Source of the DNA: Ginglymostoma cirratum
Lineage: Eukaryota
NCBI GenBank assembly: GCA_024137785.1
Contig: JAHRHZ010000004.1
Location: 11,313,676-11,377,675, forward strand
DNA: 64,000 nucleotides
Direction of reading: 5' to 3'
Positions 1,093 through 53,577 of this stretch are shown in pieces; position 1 is the stretch's first letter, and every line of letters starts with the position of its first letter. The position numbers and the translations under genes were made by a program. Under the pieces are notes generated by a model. It ran no database searches, had not been told where the DNA came from, and saw nothing but the letters and a program-made list of their open reading frames with translations.

Positions 1093-1604
1093 AAACAAAG
1101 CAGAAGTCGCTGGAAAAGCTGAGCAGGTCTGACAGCATCTGTGAAGAAAAAAATCAGAATTAATGTTTCAGCACCTCATTTTCCACCTCGGGGCCCTGAA
1201 GCCTTCCAGACTTGATATCAAATTCAATAGCTTTAAGGCATGAACTCTCCCATGTCCTTACCCCAACCGCCCACAACCAGGCCTTGTTACCACACAGCCT
1301 GCTATTCCATACCACCAATTATTAGCAACTAACAGTCCTCATTAACAGCTATTCATCCTCCTAGCCAGATCATCATCTACTGCTTTGCCTGTCTAACTGC
1401 TCTTCTCTCTCTCTGGGCTCTATTCTCACATTTTGTTCACTCCTTACCCCCTCCCACTATTCTATCTTCTGCATATGAGCTGACATTTTCCTTGTTACCA
1501 TCAGTTCTGAGGAAGGATCACTGGACCCAAAATGTTAACTCTGATTTCTCTCCACAGATGCTGCCAGACCTGTTAATCTTTTCCAGCAATTTCTATTTTT
1601 GTTA
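1093..1604 (+). mobile_element. Non-autonomous Penelope derivative: inverted pLTR arm, EN C-terminus/3'UTR, then pLTR with decayed hammerhead motif
   Basis: Arms ~1093-1171 and ~1527-1604 are inverted copies. 1172-1499 is a diverged reverse complement of 45-364. AGTT-CTGAGGA-A-GGATC-ACTG-GACCC-AAAA-TGTT-AACT lies at 1503-1540. Confidence 0.85.
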
Positions 1605-2049
1605 CAGATTCTCACATGCAGTTCTCCAATTCAGGAGGAAACAACATGAAAAAAGAGGTTCAGAGAAATTAGCAGCTAGAAATCATTTACTGAAGCTTCC
1701 ACCTCTTCTGGGACCCCAAACAGCTTCTGACTGCTGAAGCTGAAAAAAAACTACAAAGCTTGATCTGTGAGAGTGGCCAATCTTCTTCCATTGTTCCAAC
1801 TGTATTTAAAAACAAACCCAAAGGCCTCCTAAGTTAATTTCTTAAGCTGTTTTCAGTAACCAGTTGACCCCTCTGCTTTTACAACCTGTCTTCTAAAAAA
1901 AACCCAGGACAAAAATAACCTTTTTTAAAGTGGCAGCATTGTCATAATACTTAGTAAATATGTTTCATTCCAAATTATCTGGCATAGAGACTACAAAATA
2001 TAAAACATATCTATTCATCCTCATTCATATTTCCCTCAAATTCTTAACT

Positions 2050-5000
2050 TACTCTATCATTTTCGCATACTGGACAGTACATTTACATTTACATTATTTC
2101 TTCCAGCGTATGAACATCTTTCTTTTACGTTGAAATAAGAAGATCCATCTGAACAATCTAAACAACTTAGAAGAAGCTACATCTGAACTATTTAAACTTC
2201 TCAACAAAAATTAGTGAATTGTTGTCGTTTTTTTTTGGTAAATGAGTCTTCAAAATGTTGAAGAGCCAATAATAACCCTGTTTTTCTTTTCTACTGTAGA
2301 ATACTTATATTGTTTTAATTTCTGACAGAAGTACAACACCGGCTTCTTTATTCCCAATTTATCTTGCAACTCCCACAAGTCATTACCAACAAATCCCATT
2401 TAAAAGGTTTTGTAGATTCAGGAGTGGCCATCCTGTTTTATTTATTAGAGTTGTCTTTAGCTTATCGAAGGATCCTTGGCATCCTGCTGACCATACTAAT
2501 TCACATCTTCGTAACAGAATTGTGCTGAAGTTAGGCATGAATTTCCAGGGAATCCCTCACATGCCTGAAAATCTTTTAATTTTCCATTGAGTTTTAAGAG
2601 CAAAGAATCCTTTATGCATGCTATTCTTCATAGAATCACAATCCCTACAGTGTGGGAGTAAGCCATTCTGCCCTTCAAGTCCACGCCAACCCTCTGAAGA
2701 GCATCCCATCCAGATTCACACCACTGCCCTATTCCTGCATTTCCCATGGCTGATCTACCTAGCCTGCACATCCCTGGACATGGGATGGTCAATCCACCTA
2801 ATCTACACTTCTTTGGACTGTATGACGAAACCAGAGCACACAGAGAAAAACCCCCACAGGCACAGGGAGAATGTGCAAACTCCACACAGTCACCCAAGGG
2901 TGGAATTGAACCCAGCTCCCTGGCACTGTGAGCCACCAAACCTGCTGTATCCTTGGTAACTTACCTTTGAAAAGATTGATTGTAAGCCAGCTAACTTTAG
3001 TTTTCTAAACATGTCCTCTCATCTCTTTACATATACTTACCAGTGTTACAGTATCTCATAACACTATCTAAATAAATTACACAATTCAGCATTTTAGCTT
3101 TGACTTGACTCACACATCTATAGCTGGAGCTCTTTTTGAAACCCAAATGGTATCACTGATATTGAAAATAATCCATTTGGTATAATAAAGGCAGATATTT
3201 CTTTAGCTTTGAAGGCAGTGGTACTAGCCAGTAACCCTTCCTCAGATCAATGTTTGAAAAATTGAAGCACTGCCAACATTATTGATACGATGTTCCAACC
3301 AAGGAATTAATCTGCTTTTGTTACTGCGTTCACCTTTCGATAATCTATGCAGAATTCTGTTCAGCCATCTGGTTTAGGAACTAATATCATGAGTGAACTC
3401 CAACTGCTTTGGCTAGGGTCAATCAAGTATTTATCGAGCATGGATTGAATCTTCATTTCCAAGTGAGCTTGTCTTTCAAAGCTTAACAAAGAAGGATGTT
3501 GTTTCATCAATACTGGATCTCCTACGACCATATTATGTCTAGTTAACATAACACATCCAGCTATATCTCTACAGATTTCTTCGAATTTTCCGCAAAATCT
3601 TATTAAAGCTTCTATTCTCCTTCCTCTAAATATGTTAATACATCATCTAACTGTTCCATTATTCAATATTGGCTAATCAGATTGTGGCATGTTTGCTTTG
3701 TGGACTATCTACCTCTCCTTCTATCTCACTGTATTGTTGCTCTCTCCAGAGAGAGGAATAAGATCTTCCACACGTAGCTTCAGGACCCCAGCAATTGCAG
3801 AAAGCTAACACTAAAAATATTGGTTCTGTGGGAACATGACCTCACCCATTCAGGCTGCTTCTATTGTTCCAAATTAAAAAAAAAACAGAAGTCCTCACAA
3901 ACTGTTTACTTTATTGGTTTTGAGCAGACTGCCTGTCACCTCTGTCTCAACATTTCTTCATGAAAAAAAGGACAAAATGCACCTCTTGAAGCCATGGTAT
4001 CATCACACCAGTCACACTCAATTGAATATTTCTTCATAAACTGGTGTGTGTATTAAAGGTGCCAGTTTGACTATATGTTAAGGTTTCTCTACTACCTCAA
4101 AGGTATGGCATGCTTTACATAAATGCTTTATGTCCTAATGGCACTTTAGTGAAGTAAAATGCCTGTTTATTGGCGCTTAAGTTTTCTATATTGTTACGTG
4201 TTCTGCCATAAGAATTTCATGTGCAATGCATAACATCTCCTTAAGATATTTGGACAATAACACTATCTGATCAATAACCATTCATTCCTCATCTACAAAT
4301 CTGTGAAGATGTCTTCACTTCATCAGAACTCTGTTGTTAATAAAACAACACTTTGGAACTCCTTTAGTCTAAATTTCAGTGCAACCTAACTGAACTAATT
4401 TGCTTAAAAGTGATTTCAAGTAACAAAGATTTGTTGAACACTTTTCGTGAATCATCCCCATCTTTGTATACACCAACATTTGGTTTGCAGCATTAGTTTG
4501 ATCTCTGGTGATGAGTTTCGTTCAGCCATTGTGTGCCCTGATTACACACATGATGAAAAAAATAACTGGAACTTGTTCCTGTAACTCTTCCATCCTTTTA
4601 ACCTAACTTGGACTGTCTGTTATTATAGACCTAGCTATAACTTCCATTTATTCCACTTATTAGCACTTTGACGTTCATTGATCTCTCTAGAGTGAAAACT
4701 ATGTTCTTCTCCAACAAAAAAGAATTAGAGTAGTTTCTGTGTCACTTAATGTAGTTATGGATTTGGCTGCATTATTTCAGGAAATAGGAGTTACCTTTCC
4801 TTTTGGCAAAAAATATCTCTCAACTACTTGTATACCTCTCCTGTACTCGTGGCACTCTTTAGCTCCATATTCTTGATTGTAATTAAAAGCTAGAATTTGA
4901 TTTTTTGGTATTTTCCTTGCAAGTTCCTTTACTGGATTTACTTTTACAAGCCCCTAATAATCCCTTGGGCTTTGTTCATAACTTCCAGCATCTGAACAAA

Positions 5001-6000
5001 GTTGACCCCTTATATCTTAATTGGAACACAACAGTCGTCAATTTTCACCCTCAGAACACTCTTTTCTGCTTCAAGGAAGGGATCTTGGGGCATTCCCAGC
5101 TGTCTTTCCTTTACGCTGGCTGTGTTTGCCTTCCTTTCACTCTCTCATCCTCTATCCTTCTTGGATTGAAGGAAAAAAGATTTAGTTCTATGGATCAGCT
5201 CACAATCATCAGACACTACTGTTGTCTGTCTAGCAATTGCAACACTCTGGTCTTCAACATGAGCTCTTGTTACAAAAGGTAATGAGCTTTAAATTCTTCA
5301 TGAAGAATAATTTCCGAGAGCTTCATACATTGTATTTACTCCCTATGTCTACATCCATCTGTCAAAATTATTTCCCTTTATCTTTTCAAATTCAATGTAG
5401 CTTTGCTCAAGATGCTTCCTCAACTTTTGAAACTTTTGCCTGTATGCTTGAGGAACTAATGAATATGCACTGATAATAGCCTAAAATACAATGTCATAAT
5501 CCATAGAAACCTCCTCTGACAGAAATGCATAAATTTTAGGTGCTTACCTGTCTGCATGGACAATGTCCAGTTTTCATTCAGTTGTTCCATTTGTTTTGCT
5601 ATTTTCTCAAATGGCAAAAAGAATGGCTCCAAATCTGTTTCCTTATATTTTGGTCAGGCCAGTATATGTTTAAAAATTTCCCTACTACACTTTAGATTAT
5701 GATTAAGACTTTCCTCATTAGAGTCTTCTTTAGCATCCGGTCTTTTCTTAAAGTGCATCATTTTCAGCCAGTATTCCTGATCTCCTCTTCCATTTCCTTC
5801 TCCCCTTTTTTCTCTAGTTCTAGCTCTTTAAATTCTCTTTGACATGTGTTTTCTTTATTCTGAAATGTGTTTTTGTTCCTCTTCTCTCCGATGTTCAAGT
5901 TATTTTAATTTCTATCTCCTGCAGCATAAATTCCTTTCTATCTCAAGCTCCCTCAATTCTTCTTCATGTTTAAATTATTCCAAGGCAAGTGCCACTGGTA
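2050..6000 (-). mobile_element. Decayed Gypsy LTR retrotransposon, Gmr1-like domain order (gag/SCAN-like, PR, INT, RT, RNase H)
   Basis: Minus-strand translations: ~5520-5415 SEEVSMDYDIVF*AIISAYSLVPQAYRQKFQKLRK (gag); ~4250-4080 IAHEILMAEHVTI*KT*APINRHF...LCKACHTFEVVEKP (integrase H2C2); 3549-3310 [38 protein letters not shown] (RT start); ~2300-2250 YSTVEKE...LLLALQHFE (RNase H). Many stops; boundaries approximate. Confidence 0.85.
2628..2935 (-). mobile_element. HE1-like tRNA-derived shark SINE nested in the Gypsy element
   Basis: Pol III B-box on minus strand (gggttcaattcc, 2902-2913), central tgtgtggagtttgcacattctcc segment, and CR1/HER1-like 3' tail ending ...gattctat at ~2628. Confidence 0.85.
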
Positions 6001-6029
6001 GCACTGTAAACAACTTTTTGCAAAACTTT

Positions 6030-6235
6030 TCTGACGATCAAGGGTAGACTAAGAGGCCAGCTCTTGGCTGGGTTGGGAGTCAAAGTTTAAAAACAAGGGC
6101 ATGATCATTTAAAAAAGTGATGAGGAAACATTTTGTTTCTCAGATTTCAGATTAACCAGGACCTCATTGAATGACAAAATAGGCTCAAAAGATCAAATAG
6201 TCTATTGCTATACCTTGTTTGTATGTTTATGTGTT
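6030..6235 (+). mobile_element. CR1-type LINE 3' end fragment (old)
   Basis: ...aaaacaagggcatgatcatttaaaaaagtgatgaggaaacatttt... and tail aggctcaaaagatcaaatagtctattgctatacc resemble CR1 ORF2 end and 3'UTR. Confidence 0.6.
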
Positions 6236-6244
6236 TGAAATTTA

Positions 6245-7080
6245 TATCTTCTGACCTGCCCTTGAAGCCACACTGCAGTTATGGCTGGTTTGGTTGAATT
6301 TCAGGTCAATGGTAATCCTCAGTATGTATATAGTGGGGAGTTCAGAGAAGGTAATGCCATTGAACATGAAGGATTGATGGTTAAATTCTCTCTTGTTGGT
6401 GGTATTCATTGCCATGCATTTGTGTAGTGCAAGTATACCTTCCATTTATCAGACCAAAACTGGATATTGTCCAGATCCTGCTGCAAGTGATACGGATTGC
6501 TTCAGTACCCGAAGAGTTGCAAATAGTAAAGAACATTGAGAAATCATCTGTGAACATCCTGACTTCTGACCTTTATGATGGGACTGGAAGCTGATGAAGC
6601 AGCTGAAGATAATTGGGTTTAAAGCACTACCCCGAGGAAGTCCTGCATTGATGTCTTGCAGCTGAGATGATTAAACTCCAACAATCCCAAAATATGTGGC
6701 CTTTACACCACCTGAGCACCACTGCTATCTAAGCAGGACAAATGTAATCCAGCCAAGTACTGCCCTCTTAGTCTACTTTCGGTCATGAGCAAGATTATGC
6801 AAGAAGTTATTGACAGTGCTACTAAGTGGCACTTGCCAAGAAATAACTCCAGCAATCTCACCATCTTCCTTTATGCTTGGTTGACTCCAGCCTGTAGAGA
6901 ATTATCCAACTGATTCCATTTTCTTTGGGCTCTTTGATACAGTAAAAGTTGAAAGCAGCTTTGATATCTTTTACCTCATTGCTGTAATTCAACAATTTAG
7001 TCCATGTTCATTCCAAATCTGTAATCACTTCAAAACCCAAATAGTTTCAGAGGAAACCAAACTGAGTGCCAGTGAGCAGG
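6245..7080. mobile_element. Rearranged LINE (CR1/Crack-like) RT fragments
   Basis: Minus ORF 6242-6445 ALHKCMAMNTTNKR...FNGITFSELPTIYILRITIDLKFN is an RT C-terminal region, also seen on + at ~50285-50420. A + strand piece at ~6745-6850 resembles the PANYRPISLL motif. Confidence 0.7.
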
Positions 7081-7089
7081 TTGCTTTTT

Positions 7090-7355
7090 TCTTAATTCCT
7101 TAACGGGATGAGGGTGTCGCTGCCTAGGTAGTATTCATTGCCCATCCCTAATTGGCCAGAGGGCAGTTAAGAGCCAACCACATTGCTGTGGGTCTGGAGT
7201 TACATGTAGGCCAGGCCAGGTAAGGATGGCAGTTTCCTTCCCTAAATGACATTCGTGAACCAGATGGGTTTTTTCTGACAATCGACAATGGATTCATGAT
7301 CATCATTAGATTCTTAATTCTAGATATTTATTGAATTCAAATTCCACCATCTGCC
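7090..7355 (-). mobile_element. Shark SINE (family also at 44260, 57283, 62194)
   Basis: High similarity to 62194-62520 (ttgcccatccctaatt...gagggcagttaagag...ggtctggag...ccaggtaagga.ggcagtttccttccctaaa). Confidence 0.85.
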
Positions 7356-8324
7356 TTTTTAAATGGTCACCCCCTTGTTTTTAAACTATGACTCCTAGTT
7401 GCAGATTTTTCCACAAGAAGAAACGTCCATTAAATATCTAGCCTGTCAAGTCCCCTCAGGATCTTTTATATTTCAGTTAATGTACCTCCATCCCTTATAA
7501 ACTCCAACGGATACAGACTCGACTGTCTAGTCTTTTCTCATAAGGTAAACCATTCAGACCAGGTTTTAATCGAGTAAACCTTGTCAAAACTGTTTCCACC
7601 AAGTTAACATCCTTCCATATATACAGTAACCAGTACTGTATACAGTGCTCCAGACGCAGTCTCACCAATGGCCTGTTATAACTGAAGCATCACTTGTCCA
7701 CTCTTGTACCAATTCCTCTCACAATTGAACAGAAAATTTTGTTGGTTTTCCTGATTCATTTCTGTACCTACATACTGACCTGTGATTCACACACTGATCC
7801 CACTGCATCTCAGAGCTCTGCAATCTCTTGCTATTTTGATAGTATGCTTCATTTTATTCTTTCTGCTAATATGGACAATTTCCCACTTTCCTATATTAAA
7901 TTAGATCTGTCAGAACCTTGTCCACTCACTTATCCTATCCGTGTTCCTTTGTAGTCTTCTTAGAATCTCCTTTTCACAAACCACTTTCGTACCAATTATG
8001 TGTCATCAGTAAATTTAGCTACAATACCTTGAATCCCATCATCCAAATCAAATACATAATTTGTGAAGAATCGAACACCAAGCGCTGTGGCACACCACTC
8101 ATGACATCCTGTCAGCCTGAAATGAATCACTTATTCCTACTCTCTGATTCCTGTTAGCAAACCAATCTTTGATCCATGTCAATACGTTATACCCTACAGT
8201 ATGAGATTTTACTTTCTGCAATAGCCTTTGATCTGGTACCTTATTAAATGCCTTCTGGAAATCTAAATACAACACATCAACTGGTTCTCCCCTTATCTAC
8301 AGCACAAGTTATTTCTGCAACTTG

Positions 8325-8530
8325 GAGATAGCAAGAACTGCAGATGCTTGAAGTCAGAGTCAATACAGTGTTTAGTTGGAGGAACACAGTGGGACAGGCA
8401 GCATCAAAAGAGCAGGAAAGTCAACATTTCGGGTCGGGTCCTGATGAAGGGTTCCAACCCAAAATGTGGTCTTTCCTGCTCCTCTGATGCTGCCTGACCT
8501 GCTGTGTTTCTCCAGTTCCATACTATATCA
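8325..8530. mobile_element. Palindromic Penelope-derived mini-element with hammerhead-like motif
   Basis: Tail ggagatagcaagaactgcagatgct, inverted arms ~8364-8432 and ~8455-8525, and CTGATGA-A-GGGTT-CC-AACCC-AAAA at 8441-8464. Confidence 0.85.
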
Positions 8531-8539
8531 AATTTACTA

Positions 8540-9072
8540 CTTCAACTGTGTGCAGTTTTGGTCACCCTGCAATAGGAAAGATTTTGTTAAATTGGAAAGG
8601 GTGCAAAAAAAATTTACAAGGATGTTACCGAGACTGGAGAGTTTGAGTTATAAGAGAGGTTGACTAGGCTGGGACTTTTCTCCCCAGAGCGTAGGAAGTT
8701 GAGGATGGAGGTTATAGAGGTTCATAAAATCATGAGAGGCAGAGATAAGGTGAATAGAAAAGGTGAATAGGGTAGGGGAGTTCAAAACTAGAAGGCACAA
8801 TTTTAAGGTGAGAGGGGAAAGAATTCAAAGGAACCTAAAAGGCAACTTTTTCACACAGTGAGCGATTTGGATGTGGAATGAAATGCCAGAGAAAGTGATA
8901 GATGCAGGTGTAGTCACTATATTTAAAGGACATTTGGACAGGTATGTGAATAGGAAAGATTTAGAGGGACATGGGCCAAATGCATGCAAATCAGACAGGT
9001 TCAGTTTGAGAAACCTGGTCAGGATGGATGAGTTACACTGAAGTGTCTGTTTCCATGCTCTATGACTCTATC
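8540..9072 (+). mobile_element. CR1/HER1 LINE 3' fragment
   Basis: CVQFWSPCNRKDFVKLERVQKKFTRMLPRLESLSY (CR1 ORF2 C-terminus), with a 3' tail ending ctatgactctat. Confidence 0.92.
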
Positions 9073-9394
9073 AATTAGTTCAATGTGATTTCCCAGGTTG
9101 GCTCTGTCTGATTACATTGAACTTATCAGGGTGTTCTGCTATAACATTTTTAATAATAACTTCTCACATTTTCCCCATGACATATGTTAAACTAAATGGC
9201 CTGTGGTTTCCTGCTATTGTCTCCTTCCTGTTAGGATAAAGGAGGTACATTAGCTATATTCTAATCTAAAGGAAACTTCCCTGAATCTAATGAATTTTGG
9301 AAAATTAAGAGCAATGCATCAATTATTTCTGGCTATTTCTTTTAAGACCCGAGGATGAACAAATAACTTAGTTATTTCTTCTCCAATACCAGTC

Positions 9395-9900: not shown

Positions 9901-9984
9901 TTTAAAAAATCATTCACTACCACTCTGTTCTTGTCAACGGAAGATCTCCCCCCTTGAGCGTGATATTGATTATAGGTGAAGACT

Positions 9985-10190
9985 AAAATAAAATCAGAGG
10001 ATTGCTGATGCTAGAGATCTGAAGTGAAAACAGAAAACGCTGGAGTGACTCAGCAGTTCTGGCAGCATCTATGGAGAGAAAAACAGAGTTAACGCCGGAG
10101 TGCGAAATGAACACGAACTGAGTTCCACATAAAGTCATAAGGGGCTAGAAAAGTTACCTTTGTTTCTCTCTCCACCGATGCTGCCATAGT
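9985..10190. mobile_element. Old palindromic Penelope-derived mini-element
   Basis: Arm ...ggcagcatctatggagagaaaaacagagttaacg and inverted arm ...tgtttctctctccaccgatgctgcc, with a tail at the left. Confidence 0.75.
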
Positions 10191-13100
10191 TGAAGACGCG
10201 GCATCCCCTCAACATTGGGCCAGTGAAAGTAAGCGTGAGAGTTATTATACAGAGGAAACATTATATCACGTTCAAAAAAAATGTTAAGAAACAGCAGGGA
10301 CCCCTTGGTTTCGTTAGAAAGGATGATTCTGTACAGCGATGAAGGCAATTAAGGACAACTGGCGGATCTAGCAAGAAACCAGGAAATGAACACCGGAGGG
10401 CTTCACACCTCAGTGGGTTTAAACGCACTAATTGTACAGTTTCAAGTCATGTACCCTTTACAAAGGGCAAAGAAAAAAGAAATCCATTTACAAAATAAAC
10501 AGGAAACTTTCCAAACTTGTCCAGTGCAGAAGAGAGTTAAAAAGAAAATTATACGTTTTCCTTCTCACTGATTCTGTTTGCGATATTTCTACGATGGGGA
10601 AATTTCGTCCACGACTCTGCGTTTCCGAATTAAGGGTAGAATTTGTTTTCGGACAGTTAAAGACAACAAAACAACTTGTTCTGTTTTTGTTCAAAGAAAA
10701 TCTGGAACAATTGTTCAATTTATTTCCTTAAGTATTTTGATATTGGTGGCACTCCTAATTGTGAATGGGTAAGATTAAACTTAATGCATTTACTACTTGT
10801 TAATTAATTAATTCTGATCCGAAATCCACAGGAAAGAAGTCTAAAAAAGCCAAAATACCATCTTTTAGGGTTAGTTTTACTGAGGTATAAACAAATTACC
10901 TTTAAAATATACATTCTTCAAAAATGGTCCCAGACACATTGACGATACGCCTCGAGTGCTGAACAATCAAATCCTGAATTGCACAGATAGGATAAAAAAA
11001 AGTGCATAATTTTCTGTAACGATTAAATCGCCCATCAAAGATGCCAGTTAACCCAGTTTAGTGAGCCTAATAGTGTTGACCAGATGTTATGAAATCATTT
11101 TGTGTCGTAAATCAAATGAGAATGCAGCCAGGCTAGAGCTGAAAGATTACAACTTCTAACCTACAAATTCTAACCATATGAAGACAAAGTCTAGTAAATA
11201 GCCTTCATAGAAGCCTTATTTTCTGGTATAAATCAATATCTACTTAGGTTGAACTTTTAATTATAATTCAACCTCTGCCACTTAAATGCTTGTGTCGAAC
11301 CTTTTGTTTTCCTGATCACTGAGATAAATCTGAGTCAGTTGTTTCTGGAGACAATGTCGAAATATTGTTCTAAAAGAACAAAAATTTAGAAAATATAATA
11401 ATGGAAATGTAATTTTGGACAGAAGGGTCGGTATTCAATTTTAACACGGCAATTTAGTTCAAAGAGACTTAAAATATCAATGTGTATATTTTCTGAATAG
11501 ACTATGGGGATATATCAACATATATGGCAACAAAAAGATCGAAATCTGTACATGTCGCTGATAAAATATTACTAGTGAAAACGTGACTATTTTAACTTGT
11601 AACGCACTTCATAGTGTGCCTTCCAGCCTGTTCGTCTTCAAAGATTAATCTATCAAATGGACCGAGGAGGGAAAACATTTGAATATTACTTATTCCATAA
11701 CTATCTACATTCGTGCACTTCCACTTCCATCGAAAGAATTTAAACCTAGTCCCTAGATTTGCAGCCCAAAAGTTGGTTTTCCTTTCTCTGGCTGGATTTA
11801 TTGTCTTTCAAATTCGTGTCGTTGTTTCCTCGTTTATCTCTTTTGGCAGGCGACTGCTGAATTGTGGCATTTTTTTAACCTAAAATGCACCTTATTTCCA
11901 TATAGTAAGAAACACCTCCCAGCCCCCACTTTATCGCACCCTGCCCCCACCGCTTGCGCCTTCTCTTTTCTCTGTCCATCTCACTATTGTTTGCATAGAT
12001 ACTAATTTAATCCTTTAACAATGCGAACCTGCTACAGACATAGCTGTCACAATAAATTTGAAAACATTGAAATTATTTATATTAGTTATCTTATTCCCTG
12101 CTTGAGTTTATGTGGCAGGGTCAATGTTTAAAATTAGGAATGTCTCCAATGCGCAATCTTTGCAGTCTACGAAGTTGGGTATAAATGTGCGGCACACGAG
12201 TGTGTTTCCATTGATACCCGGTACATGACTCGTCAAATGATATTTCAAGCAAGCCTTAAATGTGGTTCACATTAATTGCAACCCATCATCTAAATACAAT
12301 CAATGTAGAAATGAAACTATTTTACCTTTAACAAAATAGACATTTCCAATAAAGGAGCATCGTTTCACCATACGTGTATCTCTTGCGTAACAAAGGTGAT
12401 CTTGTTAGTGCATCTCAGTGTAGCTGAGGGATTTGCTAATAAACGCGGGTTGGGCAGATTTATTCCCGAAAATATATTTATGCAATATTGCCCCAGCTAT
12501 TTCACCCTGAAGAACAGGGCCTAGAAACATCTGTCGTAATTTGTAACTTCCAACACGTTACTATATTTCCAAATTGCAGTAGTTTTTGCTCCTCTCAATT
12601 AGAACTTAGTTTCACGAGACAAAAATATTTAAATAAACCACTACAGCAGCGGCGAAATGGCCCCGCTGTTTTGTGGTATGATTTTTAACACTAATAAACT
12701 GTTAGGCATTTCGCATTTCTGCTTCAGTGTAAGTAAATCCTACAGAAATCACCTCTAACCATCCTAAAATACAATCACTGGCGAGTGAGGCAGCATTATG
12801 CTTTATTTAATAGCACTTTTACTGAACCACATTGGTTTAATAGATGGCACGGTGTTTTGTAATACGAAAACTTTTCCTTAAACAAAATAACTGGATTTTC
12901 TTTACATTTTTCCATCCTTTCCTACTGCGCTCCTTCTGCTTTTGTTTGTTGTAGCCATGCTGTTTCTGGTTTGAGATGGCTAATTAAGAAGGTAGTTTTA
13001 CTAAACTAGCAGAATAATATGTAATAAACCAGGTACCTGATCTGGCATCTGGCCCAGGTGGAGAGACAGATGTAACTAGCCGCATCGCTATCCTATGCAG

Positions 13101-13414
13101 CAAACCAAAACAAAAGTTTGGAACTTGTAATTAACGTATTTTAACCCTACAAATTGTCATCAAGTACAAAAAGGAATGCAATCGCTTGTTAACCTGCTTC
13201 CGATACGAGATGCAAACTTCATGCAAACCTAAAACAAATTATTAGTTTCTAATCACTTTTCATGAGACATATACGGTGACGATATGCTATATAGCCCATA
13301 GTAACATGTAATTACTACGTTACATACAGTTACTATGGAACATACAGTTTCCATGGACACGAGGTGCGGCCAATGCTGCGAACATTTGGAACGTAAATAG
13401 GGAATAATTTGAGA

Positions 13415-13515
13415 GAAGTTCCGAAGAAGAGTCATGTTGGTCAATGTTTAACATTGTTTCACTCCCCATTGATCCTGCCAGACCCGCTGATTTTCTCGAG
13501 CACTTCTGTTTTATC
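13415..13515 (+). mobile_element. Solo Penelope-derived pLTR arm (old)
   Basis: agttccgaagaagagtc...gatcctgccagacccgctgattttctcgagcacttctgtttt matches the other arms. Confidence 0.7.
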
Positions 13516-14094: not shown

Positions 14095-14305
14095 AAAACT
14101 GATGATGCTGAAGATGTGAAACAATACCAGAAATTGCTGGATACACTTAGCGGGTCTGGCAGCATATTATGAGAGAAAGCAGAGTTAAACTTTCGAGTCC
14201 AGTTTTGTTCTCAAGAAGGGTCATGGCACTCGAAAAATTAACTGTTTTCTCTCGACGGATGTTGCCAGACCTGCTGAGTTTCTACAGAAATTTCTATTTT
14301 TCTTA
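14095..14305. mobile_element. Palindromic Penelope-derived mini-element
   Basis: Arm agaaattgctgg...gtctggcagcat...gagttaaactttcgagtcc and inverted arm actcgaaaaattaactg...gttgccagacctgctgagtttc. Confidence 0.8.
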
Positions 14306-14524: not shown

Positions 14525-14620
14525 ACATTCTGAAGAATAGTCACTGAACTCGAAACGTTAAAGGTTCTCCATAGATGCTACTAGACCTGCTGAGCTTTTC
14601 CAGCAATTTCTTGTTTTTGC
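14525..14620 (+). mobile_element. Solo Penelope-derived arm with hammerhead core
   Basis: CTGAAGA-A-TAGTC-ACTG-AACTC-GAAA-CGTT at 14530-14559, followed by ctccatagatgctactagacctgctgagcttttccagc. Confidence 0.8.
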
Positions 14621-15255
14621 CTGTTTTACTATATATATCGTCTCTAAAATAAAGGGACTTATGGTGCAACAAAACTAAACCAATTGTCTCAAATCTGCAA
14701 TTTACGAGAGGCCTACGATCTCTGCACATTACTTGCTTGGAAATGAATACATAAAAGAAATTCGATTTTCCCTTGGCAAACACATAAACAGCTAACAGTC
14801 TGAACTGAAGCTGGTATTTAGAAGTTTGGAAAGAAAATTAAACATCACTGGCCGTTCGAGAGAGAAGATGACGCGGCATCCATGCGAAGCATGAGCCTGA
14901 ATGAATCTATTTGAACATCAGAAATTTCATTCAGAACTAAAATGACTTAGGGTGCAAGCATTGGCGGGTTCTGTTGAAGGCCTCCACGCCTTCCCTTTTA
15001 ACAAAGGTATTTTGATCGTAAAGCTAGTTCTGATAGAATATAAGTTCGATAGTTTTGAGGACTATATAAAGGGACTCATAGAATCTGAAATATCAGCGCT
15101 CACCCATAGATTCTAAAGGGCGGAAATATACAACGGGATCCATATACAACATAGGTAAGAGATAATAGGTACTGCAGATGCTGGAGAATCCGAGATAACA
15201 AGGTGTGGGGCTGGATGAACACAGCAGGCCAAGCAGCATCATAGGAGCAGGAAAG

Positions 15256-15289
15256 CTTGACGTTTCGGGCCTAGACCCTTCATCAGAAA
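15256..15289 (-). ncRNA. Minimal type I hammerhead ribozyme motif (inverted copy)
   Basis: Exact reverse complement of 15656-15689. Confidence 0.65.
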
Positions 15290-15655
15290 NNNNNNNNNNN
15301 NNNNNNNNNNNNNNNNNNNNNNNNNNNNNNNNNNNNNNNNNNNNNNNNNNNNNNNNNNNNNNNNNNNNNNNNNNNNNNNNNNNNNNNNNGTTTTTCCTCT
15401 CACCTATCCCCTCCTCCCATCTCAAGCCCCACCCCCATCTCCTATCTACTAACATCATCCCGCCCCCTTGACCTGTCCGTCCTCCCTGGACTGACCTATC
15501 TCCTCCCTACCCCCACACCTACACTCACCTTTACTGGCTCCATCCCCGCCTCTTCGACCTGTCTGCCTCCTCTCCACCTATCCTCTCCTCTATCCATCCT
15601 CTATCCGCCTCCCCCTCTCTCCCTATTTATTTCAGAACCCCGTTCCCCTCCCCCA

Positions 15656-15689
15656 TTTCTGATGAAGGGTCTAGGCCCGAAACGTCAAG
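15656..15689 (+). ncRNA. Minimal type I hammerhead ribozyme motif (predicted)
   Basis: UUU-CUGAUGA-A-GGGUCUAGGCCC-GAAA-CGUC-AAG: complete core, stem II, palindromic ACGU stem III and GUC cleavage triplet. Stem I is only ~3 bp and activity is not shown. Confidence 0.65.
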
Positions 15690-16074
15690 CTTTCCTGCTC
15701 CTATGATGCTGCTTGGCCTGCTGTGTTCATCCAGCCCCACACCTTGTTATCCCATATACAACATAATTCAGTTCTAGTGTGGACAATTGCAAACATTCGC
15801 GAAATATAATCATTCGTTGGGGATGTGCGAGGGAAGTCTTCAAATTTGAATAATCATCATGATTTTATTAATAAAACGTGATATCTAGCAACACACTATA
15901 GCATTTACTTGGGTTAAATTCAAAGATTCTGCCTCTGTCAAGCACATTGACATTGACCGATCAATATCAGTTGGAAGAATTTGTGTCTCTCAAACTGAAG
16001 TAGGTGAATGGGCGGAGATTGGTCAATGTGGCCGAGCCACAGGAAGAGAGGTCCACCCAAATTTTCGGGTATCG

Positions 16075-16155
16075 AGACTCAAACGTTAGCTTGCTTTCTC
16101 TCCATAGATGCTGCCTGACCCGCTGTGATCTCCAACGTTTTGTTTTGCTTTCAGT
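16075..16155 (+). mobile_element. Solo Penelope-derived arm
   Basis: gactcaaacgttagcttgctttctctccatagatgctgcctgacccgctgtgatctcc. Confidence 0.7.
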
Positions 16156-16185
16156 CAAGTCAACTAAGAAGCGAGAACATGTTTT

Positions 16186-19802: not shown

Positions 19803-19902
19803 ACACACACATTTATATGCATGTATATGCATATACCACACATACACACATACACATACACGCACAAACACACACACATGCACACACACGCGCGCGCACA
19901 CA
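19803..19902. repeat. Imperfect (CA)/(TA)/(CG) alternating purine-pyrimidine tract
   Basis: Direct reading: acacacac...acacacacgcgcgcgcacaca. Confidence 0.85.
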
Positions 19903-30041: not shown

Positions 30042-30066
30042 CTCTCTCCTCTTTCTCTCTCTTTCG

Positions 30067-30114
<48 letters not shown>

Positions 30115-31370: not shown

Positions 31371-34300
31371 CCCCTTTGCAGAAGTTTTTTTTCCATACCT
31401 TGTTTATTTCTCTCATTTCAAGAGAAACTTCCATACAACCCAACCCCCCTCCCCGCGTCTCGACCCGAGAGGTTGAGAAGTTGGAAAGAAACACCGACAA
31501 AAAAAACAAATAAAATGAAAGTTACCGAAGTTGATGAAGAGATATTTAACTTTTTGTTAGAGAAAATATAACGAGAGCCATTGCAAAGTATAAACAGTTT
31601 TTTCCACAGTGTTAAATAGTGGGCGCTAGAGCACCATTGAAGAGCTCAAAGTTGCTGGCCAACTACCCGTCTCTGTTTGAAAGGGGGGCAAAATATCTGA
31701 AGGGAGTCTGTTTCACAGACTGAGTACCATTAGGAGCTGAGCCGTACCGGGGTGTCTGAGAAACCAGGCATCATATTTTTGGGGGCTGCTTCGGGGAATT
31801 AGCAATGTCGATGTAATGCGGGAGAGAATCGTGCAGGATCGGGTTGGAGAAACACAACTGACAAGTTTAAACTTTCAATTTAACAATCCCAGATCGTGAA
31901 AACGGTATTTTAAGGGGAGCTAGTCTGGAGGATTGGAGGGTGTTTTACAAAGCGTTGCCGTAAAAAAAAAGTATCTTAATCTCTAAAATGTATTTTATGT
32001 CGTTCGTGTTGTGCGAAATGTTGGGAGCAGCGCTGAATATTAATCTTTAACTCATAGCCGGAAGAAAAGCATGTATGAGCGTGTGTAAAATGAAATTATA
32101 TTCACGTGCCAGGAGTATAGGCGTTTTTGTGAGGCCGTATGAAGTTTAGATCTATCAAGGTTTCAGTAGCTTGCTGTATTTTTTTTAAGAAGATGGGCCC
32201 TGCTGTAGTTGGAAAATATCTTTTTTATTTTGCTCGCTATCTGCTTCCGCCTCTACTAACATGACCACGCTGCTCAGTCTGAATGCGTGTGAGTTTGCCC
32301 CATTCCTACTTTCACTTTGAAATCTCATCTTTCTGGTTAGTTTATTTTTCTCAAACTATACGGAAAATAGGAACTGTCTTTAACTTTACCGAGTGCTTCT
32401 GAAAAAAAAAGTTGCAAATTATGAAACTTTTTTTTAAGTGTGGACTGTCGATCTTATTAACAGTCACTGCTGTGTACAGACACAAGCCTCCACATATATG
32501 TAATAGCATCTGTGCATAGTAATGTTTCTATATTTTTTTCGACATTATATATGTATGTACTTTGAAGCTTTTAATAAAGCTCTGCTCTTTATTGATTGAC
32601 ATACCGAGTCATTTACAAAAACAAGAGGACTTTATTGTTTCTTTTCTGGTATTTAGGCCAAGTTAAATTATTCACGTTTATATCACCGTGTTGGGCGCAC
32701 GGAGAAAATACCGTTTAAGTTATTCACTGGAAAGATTTGGTATCCAGAGATCCCTGATTTCAAATCCCTAAAGAGAATAATGAATTATTTAGAGCAGATT
32801 TGAAATAGTCTGTTCATGTGCGTGATTGTATTTGAAAGTGTATACGGTGTCAAGAATGTGTGCAGGCAATTATCGTGCGTCTACTTGCGTGTATACGATG
32901 TGAAGGCATTTATAAATATTTAACAGTCGCAATTAACCATATTAATTAACAATTTGGCTAATGGATTTAAACATCATTTTTTTCCCTCTAGAAATTGCGT
33001 ATAATTTTAGACCACGATTCATTTGTGTTGCAGTAGATTTTGTCGCTTTCATGCAGCGAAGTTATTTAGTGAATGGCTGGGTCCTAGTATTTTTCCAAGT
33101 TGTTTGTAAATAAATGGATGTTTAGTCTGCGTGCTACAGTCCCCGCTGAGCTTGGGTTACTAATTATTACCATTAAAAATGATGCGTGTTAAATGCCAAC
33201 TTCAGACAGTAAGGAAAGCGCATTTATTTGAACCAGGAGTTACGATTAGATTTACGCGGGGCTCGCAGCTAGAAATGGGTTGGAAGTGATTTATTTCAAA
33301 GGTACTATTCGGTGTTGAGGATGAGGAAGAAAAAAAAACCTGTCGTCCCAAGCAACCGTATTAAACAGGGCCGAACGTTTTACAATGGGAGTACAAGATG
33401 TATAAAATATATGTATAAAAAATATAAAATAATATGTATAAAAAATATCTGCTCCCCAAACCAGACTAATAATATGTGCCTCTGCGCTATTAACATCCTC
33501 CGCTCTGATTTTCATGTTGGGCGTTGTGCAGTTGGTGGGGGTTGTGGGGGTGTGGGAGGTGGAGGTTGGGGGTTGGAATAAAAAACACAATACAACTCAG
33601 CGTACAGCTAAAAACAAACAAATAAGATTGCGAGACACCTCTGCAATTGCACTCAACTTGTATGTAACAGCATAATACTGTATGGCCACACAGTAAGGCT
33701 GACTTGGCTTTTTTTGTGTACACCTATAGATGTGTGTAATAAATGCATACAACACGTCTATATACAAACACATTTCAGACTTTGCCACATTAGAATTGTT
33801 TGTATTTCATTTCTGTTTGTTGTAAGGGGGCTTAATACTTCAATCATAGTACTCTATTTTTTAAACAAAATAGACTGATAAATTGAATGAACAGAGAGGG
33901 GTAAATCGATGCTCCATCGTTTAACTATCGTTTAAGGAGTAATTCGGTGTTTTATTTAAGCAGATATTTCACTTTCCACGTTCAGGTGAACTTGAACAGC
34001 TTTAAACATGATCATTCGGTAGGTTTAAAATGAAGGAGTTCAAGGAGTCATCAGTTGTATTTTCATGCTCCAGCACCGTGTGTTTAAAGTACACGCATAT
34101 ACAGTCAAACCCTTGCACACCTGGAAGATTTACAACAAGGGGACCTTTAAGGTTTTAATGTCCTTTTAAAACACCTACATGTTTATTAAATGGTGCACTA
34201 CCCAATTCCAACTACCAGCTAGATCAGTCCACAAAGGTATTTTCTAATCTCGGTAGGCAATGGACATTTCTCTGTAGTTTCAAGATAATTTAAAACTGGG

Positions 34301-40395: not shown

Positions 40396-40633
40396 AACTA
40401 ATGCATGGGACCTGTGTTGCCAAGTCCCGGTATTTCACTGACCTGTATCTCCCTGACCCTGCACATTTAAACTTTCCTGAAAGATTGAAATGACCTTGAC
40501 ACCCAAGTTTTCGAATTGCCCAAAAATCTTGGAATGGCTTATGGACAGAAGGAACTTTCATGATGGTCTACAATTGATATTTTCCAGTAATATCTTAGTG
40601 TGTTTTGGTAAAAAGCTATCACTAATATCTAGT

Positions 40634-40705
40634 TAACAAGCATGGGGCTGGGTGAGCACAGCAAGTCAAGCAGCATCATAGGAGCAGGAATCTCTGATCC
40701 AACAT
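40634..40705 (-). mobile_element. 72-bp Penelope pLTR-derived micro-insertion with 17-bp TSD
   Basis: taacaagcatggggctgggtgagcacagcaagtcaagcagcatcataggagcaggaa matches 15196-15253. TATCACTAATATCTAGT occurs at 40617-40633 and 40706-40722. Confidence 0.85.
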
Positions 40706-44550: not shown

Positions 44551-46079
44551 TGTTTTTATATGATAGGTACTAGGCTGTAAAATGCATAGAATACGAAACT
44601 ATGGAGTTCAATAAATGTAATTACCTATTTGGGTGAAGAGTGCAATCATTTATTCTGGGGTGCCTACATTGTCAGTGAGATCTGATTAGCATGAATTATA
44701 TTTGGGTGGACTGATATTAGCATTGCATTGGTGGCCTGACGAGCATTTTGACCTTGCCACTCTTTTTTTTCTGGAAAAAGAATAAAGTTGGTAACAAAAA
44801 TAAAATGTAGGTCAGTCAAACTTAGGCATTCAAAATATGATCCTCTGAATTTAGAGTTACCACAGTCATTAGAATTCTATCTGCCTGTTATTAAATTTAT
44901 GCGGTATTTGTTCTGCGTTCATTGACTTCTTAACATTATTTTTATGGCTGAACACTAATAAGCATAACACAATTTTCCTCTGAGTTACTGTCTCTCAGAA
45001 GTTAGGACAGATAATTCTTGGAAGCTCGGACAGATAGTCCTAAGGATTGTGTGATTACAGGCAAGATTCGAAGTGTATCAATGTTTAGAGAAACACGTCT
45101 GATTCATCCCCTGCACTGCCACAATTCCGTACATACACATGCATGTATGCATAAAAATGTTTGAAAGTCAATTCTGTTGAAGGTTTCACAGGCAAATATC
45201 ATTATTATTAAAGGGACACAAGTTTTCATTGAACTTGCTAAACACATGATGCAATGATGACTATTAAACTATATCAAATTGTGAACTTCTTGACTTCCTC
45301 AGTCTTTCTTCCTTTTTTAATTGTTGAGGTTCAAATACCCAGTGGATCAGGACTGGATTTGCATTGATTTCCCTCAATATTTTCAACCCTTTGTGTTATT
45401 CTACACTATGGCTAATGGTTTTTCAATTAGGCTTGTGGTTTTTTTAAAGCAAACGAAGTGTTAAAATTCTGAAGTGGTGCATTTTCTGACTCCCTTTCTG
45501 ACACTTGAATGCATTCCTCTTCCTTTTATTTTTGGACAGTCTTTTCTTTTCTGAGATGATAATAGTTTGGCTTTTAGTATGCTTCCATTTTACATAATTC
45601 CATAATTAATATCCTTGCGAATACCACCCCTCTCTCCTCAGCAAGGAAATCATTTCATGTTATTGCGCGTTATTAACATTTGTCCCGTTGTAGGCAGATA
45701 TGTGCTACTGTGTGATTGGAACATTAAAACAAGGAACGCACAATGTTGTATTGTGCTATTGAAATAAATTCTTACTTCATTAAAAGTGATTTGTTTTATC
45801 AAGCATACAAAGTGTAGCTGTTGTAAACTGGAACATCTTACTGTTGGTGAGAAGAGTTGTAGGTTAGTGGGTGATTATAGATTCCTGGCTTCAGGTCAGG
45901 AGAAAACAGCCTGAGATTTAATGTTTCTTCTCTTTCTCCACTATCCCACACCACTAATCCTCTCTCACTTTTTTAAAGTATAATGGTATATATGCAAAAT
46001 ATTTTAAAATTATATTTACACTGATTATTTGAATGTTTTTAAAGAAAATGAGCCCAGAACAAATGCCATCTAACATTGA

Positions 46080-46176
46080 GTTTTCTGAAGAAGGGTCCAG
46101 ACCCGAAAAGTCAGCTTTCCGACTCCTCTGATGCTGCTTGGCCTGCTGTGTTCATCCAGCTCTACACCTTGTTATC
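46080..46176 (+). mobile_element. 97-bp solo Penelope pLTR insertion (hammerhead motif plus arm) with 14-bp TSD
   Basis: CTGAAGA-A-GGGTC-CA-GACCC-GAAA-AGTC at 46085-46112. TSD CCATCTAACATTGA is at 46066-46079 and 46177-46190. Confidence 0.9.
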
Positions 46177-46812
46177 CCATCTAACATTGATACTTGTCTG
46201 ACTTGATTTGGTCCATTTTAACAGGTGTTAATATAGAAGTTATGTTGATTTAATTGTAATATTTGCATTTGAGTGTGACCCGTGGAGTTCTCTCGGTTAT
46301 GAGGATATTTGTGAGTATGTAACGCTAATTGTAATGTAGCAATTGACTTGTTACTGTTGTGATAATTGTTTCTACACTTTTAGCTGGACCAATCTTTTAA
46401 AGGAGCTGAGACTTTTTAATATGCCAATCTTTGCCAAATCTCTCTTTTATTTCAAGTGTGTCTAATTATTGCCATGGTAGTAGCTTTTTATAACTTATAT
46501 TGTAAAGCCATCTAACTGAAATAATTTACCTTCATTTGTAAATGTAACAATCCCCTATGGTCACTTAATGGCTTGCATTTGATTTCACTGGTGCAAGCTA
46601 CAGTGGACACTCTCTAATATAATTATATTCCATGCTCCATATGGGGCCAGTATATTCACACAATGTCTCTGCATGTTTTTTTTCTGTCTGTTTTTAGCTT
46701 CTAAAAAGCTTGCACTTTCTCCAGAAAATAGCTTTCAGATAGTTAATTTCCTCCAACCTTTGAACAATCTTCTGAAGAGCTGACCCATCTCGGTAGAGCG
46801 AGTACTTAAGTT

Positions 46813-47040
46813 CAATAAAAGCAAAGTTCTACAGGTGTTGAAAAGTGAAATAAAAGCAAAGTGCTGAAGAAACTCAACAGGTCTGGCGGCATATGTGGAG
46901 AGGGAAAGAAAGTTAACATTTTGAGTCCAATATAACTTGTGTCAGAACTTCAAAAGAGAGTCGTAGCGAATTTAGAACATTAACTCTGTTTCTCTCTCCA
47001 CACTTGTTGAGTTTCTCCAGCACTTTCTGTTCTTATCTCT
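46813..47040. mobile_element. Old palindromic Penelope-derived mini-element
   Basis: Arm aaactcaacaggtctggcggcatatgtggagaggg...gttaacattttgagtcc and inverted arm aacattaactctgtttctctctccac...gttgagtttctccagcacttt. Confidence 0.75.
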
Positions 47041-51010: not shown

Positions 51011-53345
51011 ATTTGTATGTGCTGCCTAATGATACAACCACAGTCTCCTGGAACTTGAAAACATTAGTTCCTAGCATTGGAGGATTCGCAACATTCCCTC
51101 CAACTTTTAGTCTATTCTTTTAAGTGCTTTTGAGACCATTATTATTTTTCTTTTGTTTTTTCTCATTTTTGGTTGGAACTGTGAGTTGCAACTGAGAATT
51201 TAACATTGAACAGCAGCAGGTTTCAAAAAGAAAGAGATGTTTGCTGTTGGGATCTGGCCTGGAAAGATGAAGTAAGTCAATTACTGCTCTGAGGACACTG
51301 TAGATGAACTGGCACCCAGATGTCATTATGCTCAGGGACTGGTAGCTGATTGGGTGTTGAATTGATCAATCAAAGGAGGACTGGTGCTGGCCAGCCAATC
51401 ACAGACAGTGTTGAGAAAGAAAAAGAAAAACTAAAGGTGAACTGGCTTTGACTGGGCTTTTGGGCAGGAAGTCAAGTACTGCTTTGGAAGCTTCAGCACT
51501 GGGCCTTTTGGTTTTTCTCTATTTATTCTCCGGTAGTAAAATTGTTCAAAGTCCTGGGAAAGAATCTCACTCTATAAGAAATCAAGAAATGTCTTTGTAG
51601 GTCTACAGAAGATGTCTATTTTGACTGGCGACTTTGGAATTCTTTAAGATACAATTCTAGGTGCCTCTAATACAACCCATCGGATTTCATGAAGGCTTAG
51701 TATTCATCGTGAAATGGCTAATGAACTGGCAACTTCTGATTTTGTTTTTATTTATTGCTTAACTATGTCTGTCAGTGTGTAAGTAGGGGCCGGTAAGAAG
51801 ATTGGGCTTAGTTTGTAGTTATTTATTAGGTTGCCTTGTTGTTCATCTGTGTTCTGCTAAAGTCACATTATTAATAGTAAATTGTTACTTTTGTTTGAGT
51901 TATGAACTCAAACAAGTCTAAGATATTCTACTTGTAAAGGCTGATTAGGAACAATTGAACAATTTTGAGGGTCATTGAATGGTTAAATTTCACTGTGTTG
52001 TGCATCCAGTGGTAATGAGTCAGATTTGGTCTGGCATTCTGTACCTGTGTCATAACAGTGTGCGAGACCTTTAAATACTTTTGTTTGACCAGATTTGTGC
52101 AGTGAATTAAAGGAGCTGACTTGTGCTTGGCCTATGCATGAATTTCCATGTTTTTGTCCTGCTGCACTGTTTAAAGGGATAAAGAATGGCTCCCATGCAC
52201 ATACAATGTGTCCTTTTGTAACCCAGGCAACAATAAAAAGAATGGTGGATGTAGTGGGCTCAATGTTGGGTTCCCATAATTTAAGAGTACAGCTTCCTTC
52301 AGTGCCTCTTTTGGCATGTTCTATAAGGTCCATTGATGTATTCTTCACTGCCTACTTAAAAGCAGCAACCCTGACAATCCCATTCAATTCTTTCTGTAAG
52401 CTTCCTTTCCAATAAACATGCTAGGTGCTAACGTTACCAATCTCCTTCCTAAATAACTCATCACTTCAAGTACTGACACAGTGAATTCTGTCCCACCATA
52501 TATCTCCCTTCAGCATGTCCATTTCGTAATGGACAAAGATCTTGCCCTCCATGAGGTTATTATGGGTGGTTGCATTGACATCATGGCATTGATTGAAAAT
52601 GGGCTGAAGGGTGATAACGCATTCCTCTGAGATGGAGCCTTCCCATCTGGCTCCACCTCCAACCATTGCTCCACCAGACCATAACAATTTTTCTCATCAC
52701 TAAATCAGACCTTTTTCACTATTTGTGACACCTTCTCTTCCTTTGAGCATCTTGATATACGTCACCTCTCATTTGAAAACTTTAATCCATCCAAGTACCA
52801 TGACAGCTTTCTTGGTGATATCATCACGACTTTCTGTTGTGTATTGCATTGAGAAGAAACGTACCATGTGGATTTCCTGTAAGCACTCATTATTGATCTA
52901 ACTTTACTGTACACATTCCTGACAGAAACAGAGAGGGCAGCGAAGAGGCCACTATGATATACCACACTCCCTCCCCACTTAAGCAACTTAAACATGAAAA
53001 TACAAAATGACATGTGCATAAATTTGCAGAATAAAATATGAATGAACCAACATCAGCAATATCTTAAATTTAAAGGTTAGGTTGCAAATTTAGTATTACT
53101 GTATCACAACTAAAGTATATATGATCAATATTACCAGAATAACTTGCATGTGAAAAATATTTGTTTAACTTTAGTTTGTGTTTAACAAAATATCATAACG
53201 TGATTAAAAAAATGAAAAGAAGTATGTTTTCATGTTTTCTTCCCACATACTTTCATTTAAATAATCTAACTCTTTCAGTCTGGGTACCTTCTTTCAATTC
53301 CAGCTCCATTAGCTTGATTGCTCTCTCAACATTGTAAAAGATTAA

Positions 53346-53577
53346 CAAAAACAGAAGTTGCTGGAAAAGCTCAGCAGGCCTGGCAGCATCTGTGAAGAAA
53401 AATCAGAGTTAATGTTTTGGACCCTGTGAGAAAGGGTCTGTTCTGAAGATAGGTCACTGGACCTGAAACATTAACTCTGATTTTTCTTCGCAGACGCTGC
53501 CAGACCAGTTGAGATTTTCCAGCAACTTCTGTTTTTCGTCCTGATTTCCAGCATTCGCAGCTCTTTCATTTTTTTTG
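53346..53577. mobile_element. Palindromic Penelope-derived mini-element nested in the Gypsy remnant
   Basis: Inverted arms ~53346-53420 and ~53460-53537. GTT-CTGAAGA-T-AGGTC-ACTG-GACCT-GAAA-CATT-AAC lies at 53440-53475, with the tail on the right. Possible 14-bp TSD TTGTAAAAgaTTAA (53332-53345) / TTGTAAAAttTTAA (53578-53591). Confidence 0.88.

Follow-up and report, generated by a model that had tools for sequence, protein, structure and literature searches.

The closest described system is the minimal hammerhead ribozyme (min-HHR) found in the terminal repeats (pLTRs) of metazoan Penelope-like elements (PLEs). The available part of the paper by Cervera and De la Pena (2014, PMC4209133) states covariation at the level of families and reports weak cleavage of the motifs as dimers; PLE minimal hammerheads with family-level covariation are therefore an already published class. 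In a Poseidon element of Anolis carolinensis, the hammerhead needs protein to cleave, insertion uses mainly uncut RNA as its template, and reverse transcription begins at an internal site about 110 bases into the RNA (Frangieh et al. 2024, PMC11167929, as far as the accessible text goes). We analysed a 64,000-nucleotide stretch of the Ginglymostoma cirratum genome (GCA_024137785.1, contig JAHRHZ010000004.1, positions 11,313,676 to 11,377,675 of the forward strand), here called the window, in which minimal type I hammerheads sit in the pLTRs of PLEs. We consider it very probable that the window holds 5'-truncated and inverted end-pieces of several Penelope-like retrotransposon families, that their terminal repeat contains a minimal hammerhead of type I for which cutting is predicted only in a dimer or with the help of protein, and that the stems were likely selected in the source elements and decay at random in inserted copies.

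The families described here (A to E, with F as a variant of B, and G) differ from the examples in the available text of PMC4209133. Helix II is 4-5 bp in A-E and 6-7 bp in G, versus 7-8 bp in Schistosoma; the copy number exceeds 100,000, versus ~4,000-9,000 for coelacanth and Xenopus; and no cartilaginous fish is named there among the hosts. Non-LTR retrozymes likewise have type I hammerheads of PLE origin in vertebrates, including one chondrichthyan, and according to the accessible part of that report they form head-to-tail tandem arrays (Li et al., bioRxiv 10.64898/2026.07.22.740005), whereas the pieces in the window are solitary or inverted. A head-to-tail hammerhead array was absent among the eight rows that Tandem Repeats Finder gave for the window. 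A literature search found no paper on shark Neptune-type Penelope families; subscription papers were mostly outside its reach, and the supplements of PMC4209133 may list such families. What the locus adds is of modest value: covariation that truly arose in source elements can be cleanly told apart from CpG decay, and the starts of the copies form a very large fossil record with a bearing on the purpose of the PLE hammerhead.

Identity of the motif and its families

The motif is, by every sequence test that we ran, a PLE minimal hammerhead, and cleavage is predicted. The core CUGANGA ... GAAA ... UH, in type I order, is intact at 15659 and 15286 and is the majority state in every family. One extra base lies between A9 and G10.1 (A in families A-E, T in G), G10.1-C11.1 is the majority pair in all six families (A-E and G), helix III is reduced in all six to the loopless palindrome ACGT (15.2-16.2), and helix I is short, with a stem I of 4 bp. 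All four min-HHR sequence hallmarks given in the accessible text of PMC4209133 are present in these motifs. A pattern that fixes only the catalytic core and a tail word had 107,096 matches in the 4.36 Gb genome and 0 when reversed. A full minimal-hammerhead descriptor had 4 matches in the window, versus a mean of 0.02 and a maximum of 1 in 200 dinucleotide-type shuffles, and profile searches (nhmmer) found 22 pLTR pieces there, many of them inverted pairs.

The families were defined by tail, loop length and the base at N7. N7 and spacer length are T and 2 bases in A, mostly A and 2 bases in B and its variant F, G or A and 4 bases in C, T and 5 bases in D, and A and 6 bases in E; loop length and loop sequence differ in every family. 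A first-pass annotation of the window had reported that N7 varies among T, A and G, and it does.

Family A belongs to the PLEs with an endonuclease (EN+). Frames upstream of family A ends match RVT_1 (E=9e-8) and GIY-YIG (E=2.7e-4; at 21.6 bits just under the Pfam cut-off of 22.6, in copies that are broken), and a CX2-5CxxC linker between reverse transcriptase (RT) and endonuclease was found in A and D pieces and, decayed, in C. The layout is that of EN+ PLEs: one open reading frame (ORF) holding RT and C-terminal GIY-YIG and the pLTR downstream. Tandem or inverted pLTRs, 5' truncation and a tail were also seen, as direct pLTRs at both ends of one copy (L250), inverted pairs in the window and clusters of 3' ends. 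By the description in the available part of Craig et al. (bioRxiv 10.1101/2021.04.23.441226), the family A sequence reads as an EN+ element of Neptune type; Neptune and Nematis both have the Cys linker, and the Neptune label for A-E is putative. The endonuclease remnants upstream are 87% identical between A and B, ~51% between A and C and 55-62% between A and D. Because C and D have endonuclease remnants of their own that have diverged from that of A, they come from separate source lineages, which makes at least three; no coding piece of family E was found.

The stems of family A are non-coding. L250 (G000:C25:22741500-22749500, minus strand) is a copy of family A that is complete at its 5' end. 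Its upstream pLTR begins 2 bases ahead of the core, next to an inverted B-like arm, and its endonuclease part is deleted, with a stretch of family G sequence after it. Its ORF starts 166 bases after C3, with in-frame stops between, so coding does not explain the stems of this family. A coding constraint is thus ruled out for A; it is possible for G, whose stem II opens with ATG. The hammerhead of family A, with its ORF 166 bases after the core, is predicted to be untranslated, unlike that of the Anolis Poseidon element as described in the available part of PMC11167929.

Family G was found by a search for other stems (2,749 matches, versus 35 for the control) and has an unrelated stem and tail; a profile search did not find it in the window. 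One of its pieces (L148) has no Cys linker and is 34% identical to the family A endonuclease (E=0.002), and two G pieces had no Pfam match. We tentatively take G to be of Poseidon type, judging by its motifs.

Paired changes between families and decay within them

Helices I and II show compensatory change between families. We scored pairs in an unselected sample of 1.264 Mb fetched regardless of motif (the window, 400 kb around it and four 200 kb blocks), which held 336 copies, 206 of them core-aligned; the counts in this section are from this sample unless another set is named. Pair 2 of stem II was G-C in 52/54 copies of A, 44/48 of B and 40/54 of C, A-T in all five copies of D, and T-A in all 13 of G. 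The 28 copies of E were divided among A-T (13), G-T (6), A-C (5), G-C (1) and others (3), and those that are neither A-T nor G-C have decayed on one side; family E selected by length alone was mostly A-T at this pair, as were 23/30 copies in another family E set. When D was selected by its tail and stem II was left free, G-C at pair 2 was found in 0/100 of the matches listed (the first 100 of 469).

Stem I changed in the same manner. Its pair 2 was T-A in 38/53 of the C copies listed and in 20/29 of E, and C-G in 4/4 copies of D and in 23/28 of a larger D set that includes loci first chosen by their stem II letters. This is a second double change; the first-pass annotation had the AGTT/AACT form of stem I only. 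A third paired change lies within family G, where pair 3 of stem II was T-A in 51, T-G in 28, C-G in 16 and C-A in 1 of 96 usable rows (from the first 100 of 2,749 matches listed, scored by eye after dropping three rows of other families and one deleted row). These states trace a path U-A -> U-G -> C-G. The compensatory changes are G-C/A-U/U-A at stem II pair 2, U-A/C-G at stem I pair 2 and pair 3 of stem II in family G, and helix I is imperfect in B. One-sided changes that kept the pairing were seen at stem II pair 4, which is U-A or U-G, and at pair 5, which is C-G or, in A, U-G. We also tried a changed stem II pair 3 as a further A-E family. It had 239 matches, versus 37 for the control, and the 100 listed were scattered double-decay copies of A, B, C and E.

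In a rough simulation, devised after the data were seen and on a simplified tree, the A-E pattern arose in 0.4-1.5% of cases for stem II and in 0.05-0.15% for both stems. Among 16 hand-picked copies, 91% of cells were paired, and shuffles reached this level in 0/500 cases on four measures and 7/500 on a fifth. This second count carries little weight because the rows are related and were chosen by us, many of the changes come from family G, and a gap column took the place of the fourth pair of stem I.

The pieces found in the window are as follows.

1..50, plus strand: family B, pLTR tail only (nhmmer)
300..975 (lower bound approximate), minus strand: decayed, internally deleted family C PLE body with an RT fragment (793-975; tblastn, 64% to the family A RT), then the Cys linker and a GIY-YIG remnant (translation)
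1087..1175, minus strand: family C pLTR piece that opens with the 3' half of the hammerhead and lies upstream of the RT remnant
1497..1610, plus strand: family C pLTR with stem I AGTT (1503-1506) / AACT (1537-1540), core 1507-1513, stem II GGATC/GACCC, GAAA changed to AAAA
8350..8533, both strands: inverted pair of B-like (F) pLTR pieces; plus copy with core at 8441, GGGTT/AACCC and AAAA; minus arm with G at 11.5
10016..10192, both strands: inverted pair of family E tail pieces
13412..13512, plus strand: family E copy with a broken core and the 5' strand GAGTC only
14113..14303, both strands: inverted pair of family E pieces; minus arm with GACTC; plus arm with a broken core and GGGTC/CACTC
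14527..14622, plus strand: C/E-type copy with core at 14530, TAGTC/AACTC and a broken stem I
15179..15292, minus strand: family A pLTR with an intact hammerhead, core at 15286; inverted partner of the 15659 copy; runs into a stretch of Ns
15390..15764, plus strand: 3' end of family A, preceded by ~270 bases of native sequence, with a TATA-like word ~35 bases before the core, and an intact hammerhead with core at 15659 and the predicted cut after 15686
16071..16160, plus strand: family D piece with only the 3' strand GACTC and the AGCT stem I strand
40625..40690, minus strand: family A tail only
46078..46183, plus strand: family B pLTR with core at 46085, GGGTC/GACCC and a broken stem III palindrome
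46847..47038, both strands: two decayed family E pieces as an inverted pair, each with a broken core
53341..53549, both strands: inverted pair of family C pieces; plus copy with core at 53443 and AGGTC/GACCT
55634..56287, both strands: A/B tail pieces in inverted orientation around a stretch of Ns

Most copies in the window are damaged, and only the hammerhead at 15659 (plus strand) and its inverted twin at 15286 (minus strand) are fully intact. The first-pass annotation had drawn its case for covariation of stem II from the window copies, and the letters that it cited are present where it placed them. At 15667 the core CTGATGA, the GAAA and the cut triplet are intact, but the stem given there, GGGTCT/AGGCCC, leaves no loop; the RNAfold form is GGGU/GCCC, a 4-bp stem with a 4-base loop. 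The copy at 46093 has GGGTC/GACCC and GAAA with a broken stem III palindrome (AGTC for CGTC), and that at 53451 has AGGTC/GACCT and GAAA, again with a broken palindrome (CATT). GGGTT/AACCC is present at 8449 but is followed by AAAA, contrary to the report that GAAA was retained. Stem I AGTT/AACT at 1503/1537 was seen correctly, in a copy whose stem II holds an A-C mismatch and whose GAAA likewise reads AAAA. The GAGTC/GACTC type pieced together from decayed copies proved real genome-wide (284 exact copies) and is not a product of CpG decay, although no window copy has this stem intact: GAGTC at 14195 and 46925 is on the wrong strand, being the reverse complement of the 3' strand GACTC of an inverted minus-strand arm, the copy at 13432 has a broken core and 3' strand, and 14538 reads TAGTC/AACTC.

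The variants at 53451 and 8449 were due to decay. C11.1 precedes G12 and thus lies in a CpG, as does C15.2-G16.2, so single copies can mimic A-U pairs at these places. In family C, 3,901 copies have T at 11.1 with G10.1 still opposite. When A was at 10.1, the base at 11.1 was C in 56, T in 39, A in 4 and G in 1 (first 100 of 562 matches listed), and when A was instead at the non-partner position 10.2, T at 11.1 was found in 31/100 of the matches listed; unselected family C copies had it in 14/45 (Fisher p=0.30 and p=0.46, respectively, versus 39/100). These rates do not differ, and AGGTC/GACCT is therefore a G-to-A change plus CpG decay; as a putative subfamily it occurred once (1/54 C copies) in the unselected sample, which includes the window. 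Likewise, GGGTT/AACCC occurred once (1/48 B copies) in that sample and was rejected as a subfamily in favour of CpG decay. The B/F context with T at 10.5 has 161 copies, with G at 11.5 in 79 and A in 19 of the first 100 listed; there, A at 11.5 was found in 16/46 copies after C versus 3/54 otherwise (p=0.0002), and the other arm of the 8449 insertion still has G at 11.5.

That decay or random post-insertion mutation accounts for every difference between the stems is nonetheless close to untenable. It holds for these two variants, but stem II pair 2 and stem I pair 2 have no base in a CpG, A-U and C-G are majority states in families defined by tail or loop length alone, and the simulated frequencies given above are low. 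This explanation is refuted for stem II pair 2, stem I pair 2 and family G pair 3. The claim of the first-pass annotation that its stem variants are source-element covariation thus stands for one of the four variants listed, which is a true paired change between families, and not for AGGTC/GACCT and GGGTT/AACCC, each a single-copy mutation plus CpG decay. Its broader claim, that structure was selected in several source elements and is not a chance motif, is supported by the genome-wide data, although half of the evidence cited for it turned out to be decay.

Inserted copies decay without regard to pairing. In family C, A at 10.2 was paired with T at 11.2 in 4/100 of the matches listed, equal to the background (3/45), and the core was intact in 46/54 copies of A, 32/49 of B, 15/54 of C, 0/5 of D, 5/31 of E and 6/13 of G. 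The family C result bears on whether the paired changes were made in DNA or cDNA, by correction of a palindrome through hairpin template switching, and not by selection on RNA. Many PLE insertions have inverted arms with the change of strand inside the hammerhead, which shows that templates are switched close to it. However, a change on one strand in family C is not matched on the other beyond chance, the stem I strands are at least 30 bases apart around an unpaired core, and U-G wobble is fixed in large subfamilies (A pair 4, 54/54; G pair 3, 28/96 listed rows), which suits RNA pairing and not DNA correction. We regard such correction as highly improbable. Based on these results, we conclude that pairing was likely selected in the source elements, on the strength of very few independent events, and that the covariation supports a conserved fold and does not demonstrate cleavage.

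Two other differences were seen in stem I. Between family A and B/F, an extra base in the 3' strand of A after the cut triplet turns the U-C mismatch of B into U-G, and in one A subfamily the fourth stem I pair is A-U.

Folding, cleavage and the start of the RNA

Several observations weigh against a selected, functional ribozyme. The best structure from RNAfold was not the hammerhead fold, for monomers or for self-dimers, and for A and B the program preferred an intermolecular stem II duplex. No Rfam hammerhead model was among the 18 Rfam matches at E up to 10 in a scan of the window, a miss that would be expected because these forms lack helix III. No pile-up of RNA read ends was found at the predicted cut in two raw-read runs, which were chosen by species label and come from libraries of a kind that shows ends poorly. 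Independent events are few: families A-E provide one double change each in stem II and stem I, plus two single changes tolerated as wobble. At pair 3 of stem I, 29/34 copies of family B have a U-C mismatch, and pair 4 of that stem is A-C in part of family A (15/37 copies). Finally, insertion of the Anolis element in vitro did not need cleavage, as stated in the accessible part of PMC11167929.

Family A has a stem II and loop that are nearly self-complementary (for example 15667-15678), and self-dimer folding favours a 12-bp duplex between two RNAs. In such folding models this duplex could either aid or block the double-hammerhead form.

We considered whether the conserved fold might serve the element's own protein as a signal for binding or packaging, or be a structure close to the promoter, and cleave only weakly or incidentally. 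The 5' ends of copies lie before the core much more often than they lie at the cut, and family B spread widely despite its imperfect stem I. The available text of PMC11167929 reports that catalytic mutants insert normally in vitro and that no RNA-seq reads end at the cut, and that of PMC4209133 reports low activity and leaves other functions possible. However, families with endonucleases ~34-60% identical have the core letters, G10.1-C11.1, the cut triplet and the palindrome of stem III in common, and a pure binding signal need not keep a catalytic consensus; in the Poseidon element, cleavage is core-dependent and protein-assisted (PMC11167929, accessible part). We hold this reading to be doubtful, though worth keeping in mind, and prefer a minimal hammerhead predicted to cut as a dimer or with protein.

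Such a ribozyme would probably act on paired motifs. Because stem III is a loopless 4-base palindrome, two hammerheads, from the two pLTRs of one transcript or from two RNAs, would have to pair to form an active site. A transcript from one pLTR through the ORF into the next would carry two hammerheads with palindromes able to pair, and selection on the fold would have acted only in the RNA of transposing elements. Most copies were presumably reverse-transcribed from uncut RNA.

The boundaries of inserted copies agree with uncut templates. We scored 5' ends in families A-D after dropping 25 copies beside stretches of Ns; boundaries are less sure in the old families. The 5' end was 1-8 bases before C3 in 21/60 copies of A, 19/88 of B, 28/77 of C and 5/9 of D. 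It was in the preceding 42 bases in 0, 2, 2 and 1 copies and within 3 bases of the cut in 1, 6, 3 and 0 copies of A, B, C and D, respectively. Nine copies of family G had no such peak. In addition, at 3 bases before the core, 1,728 RNA reads pass from the family A sequence to mixed flanks. The two orientations of family A ends are covered to the same extent by poly(A) reads, and at no site do many molecules begin or end; we read this coverage as passive transcription inside host RNAs that is uninformative on cleavage.

The first base of stem I, or one close to it, may be where transcription starts. In 19/38 copies of A, a TATA-like word begins 35 bases before C3. Within 30-38 bases before C3, such a word was found in 15 places among 28 D copies, 5 in C, 3 in E and 0 in B, many copies of which are without native upstream sequence. 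The six bases before the core are CCATTT in A, TCAGTT in C and E, and TCAGCT in D; we take CCATTT and TCAGTT to fit the initiator consensus. A start of the RNA at stem I is a fair inference from these data, and the alternative is that reverse transcription stalls at the fold. A literature search found no paper on a pLTR start site at stem I, with subscription papers mostly outside its reach.

We give about an even chance to a more specific model, in which stem I supplies the first base of RNA of the Neptune type and its 5' strand serves also as a polymerase II initiator (TCAGTT or CCATTT); a TATA-like box would lie 33-35 bases upstream of the core. The ribozyme would then sit directly under the cap, cutting would remove the cap from the RNA, and the short genomic copies, in their tens of thousands, would be cDNAs of the uncut 5' end. 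If so, the double duty as initiator would explain why stem I has 4 bp and why family B kept its initiator-like strand despite the mismatch. Should the RNA begin at stem I and be copied without being cut, a regulatory or uncapping role for the cut would be likelier than a template-making one.

Other observations in and around the window

The intact family A hammerheads at 15179-15764 are an inverted pair, identical over 96 compared bases, that flanks a 100-base stretch of Ns. This pair is a young insertion. Two miRNA-like Rfam matches, at 8402-8489 and 46889-47007, were set aside as mere reflections of inverted arms.

In families C and E (1533-1563 and 53471-53500), a TTAAC word spans the predicted cut, and a pyrimidine run and CAG come after it, an arrangement that resembles a branch point with a 3' splice site. 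An intron ending just past the hammerhead was considered and rejected: the TTAAC/pyrimidine/CAG arrangement is not in A, B or D, and no canonical splice joint was among the 15 listed of 200 for a family A copy.

Six other ORFs of the window had no Pfam match. Outside it, beside a family E copy (L003, minus strand, 418-987), there is an open frame that, by its motifs, looks like a putative C-type lectin exon. The window also has ordinary small tandem repeats at 24529-24624, 19837-19889, 30042-30099 and 33398-33448, comprising a 44-base unit repeated 2.2 times and CA, CT and AT-rich runs.

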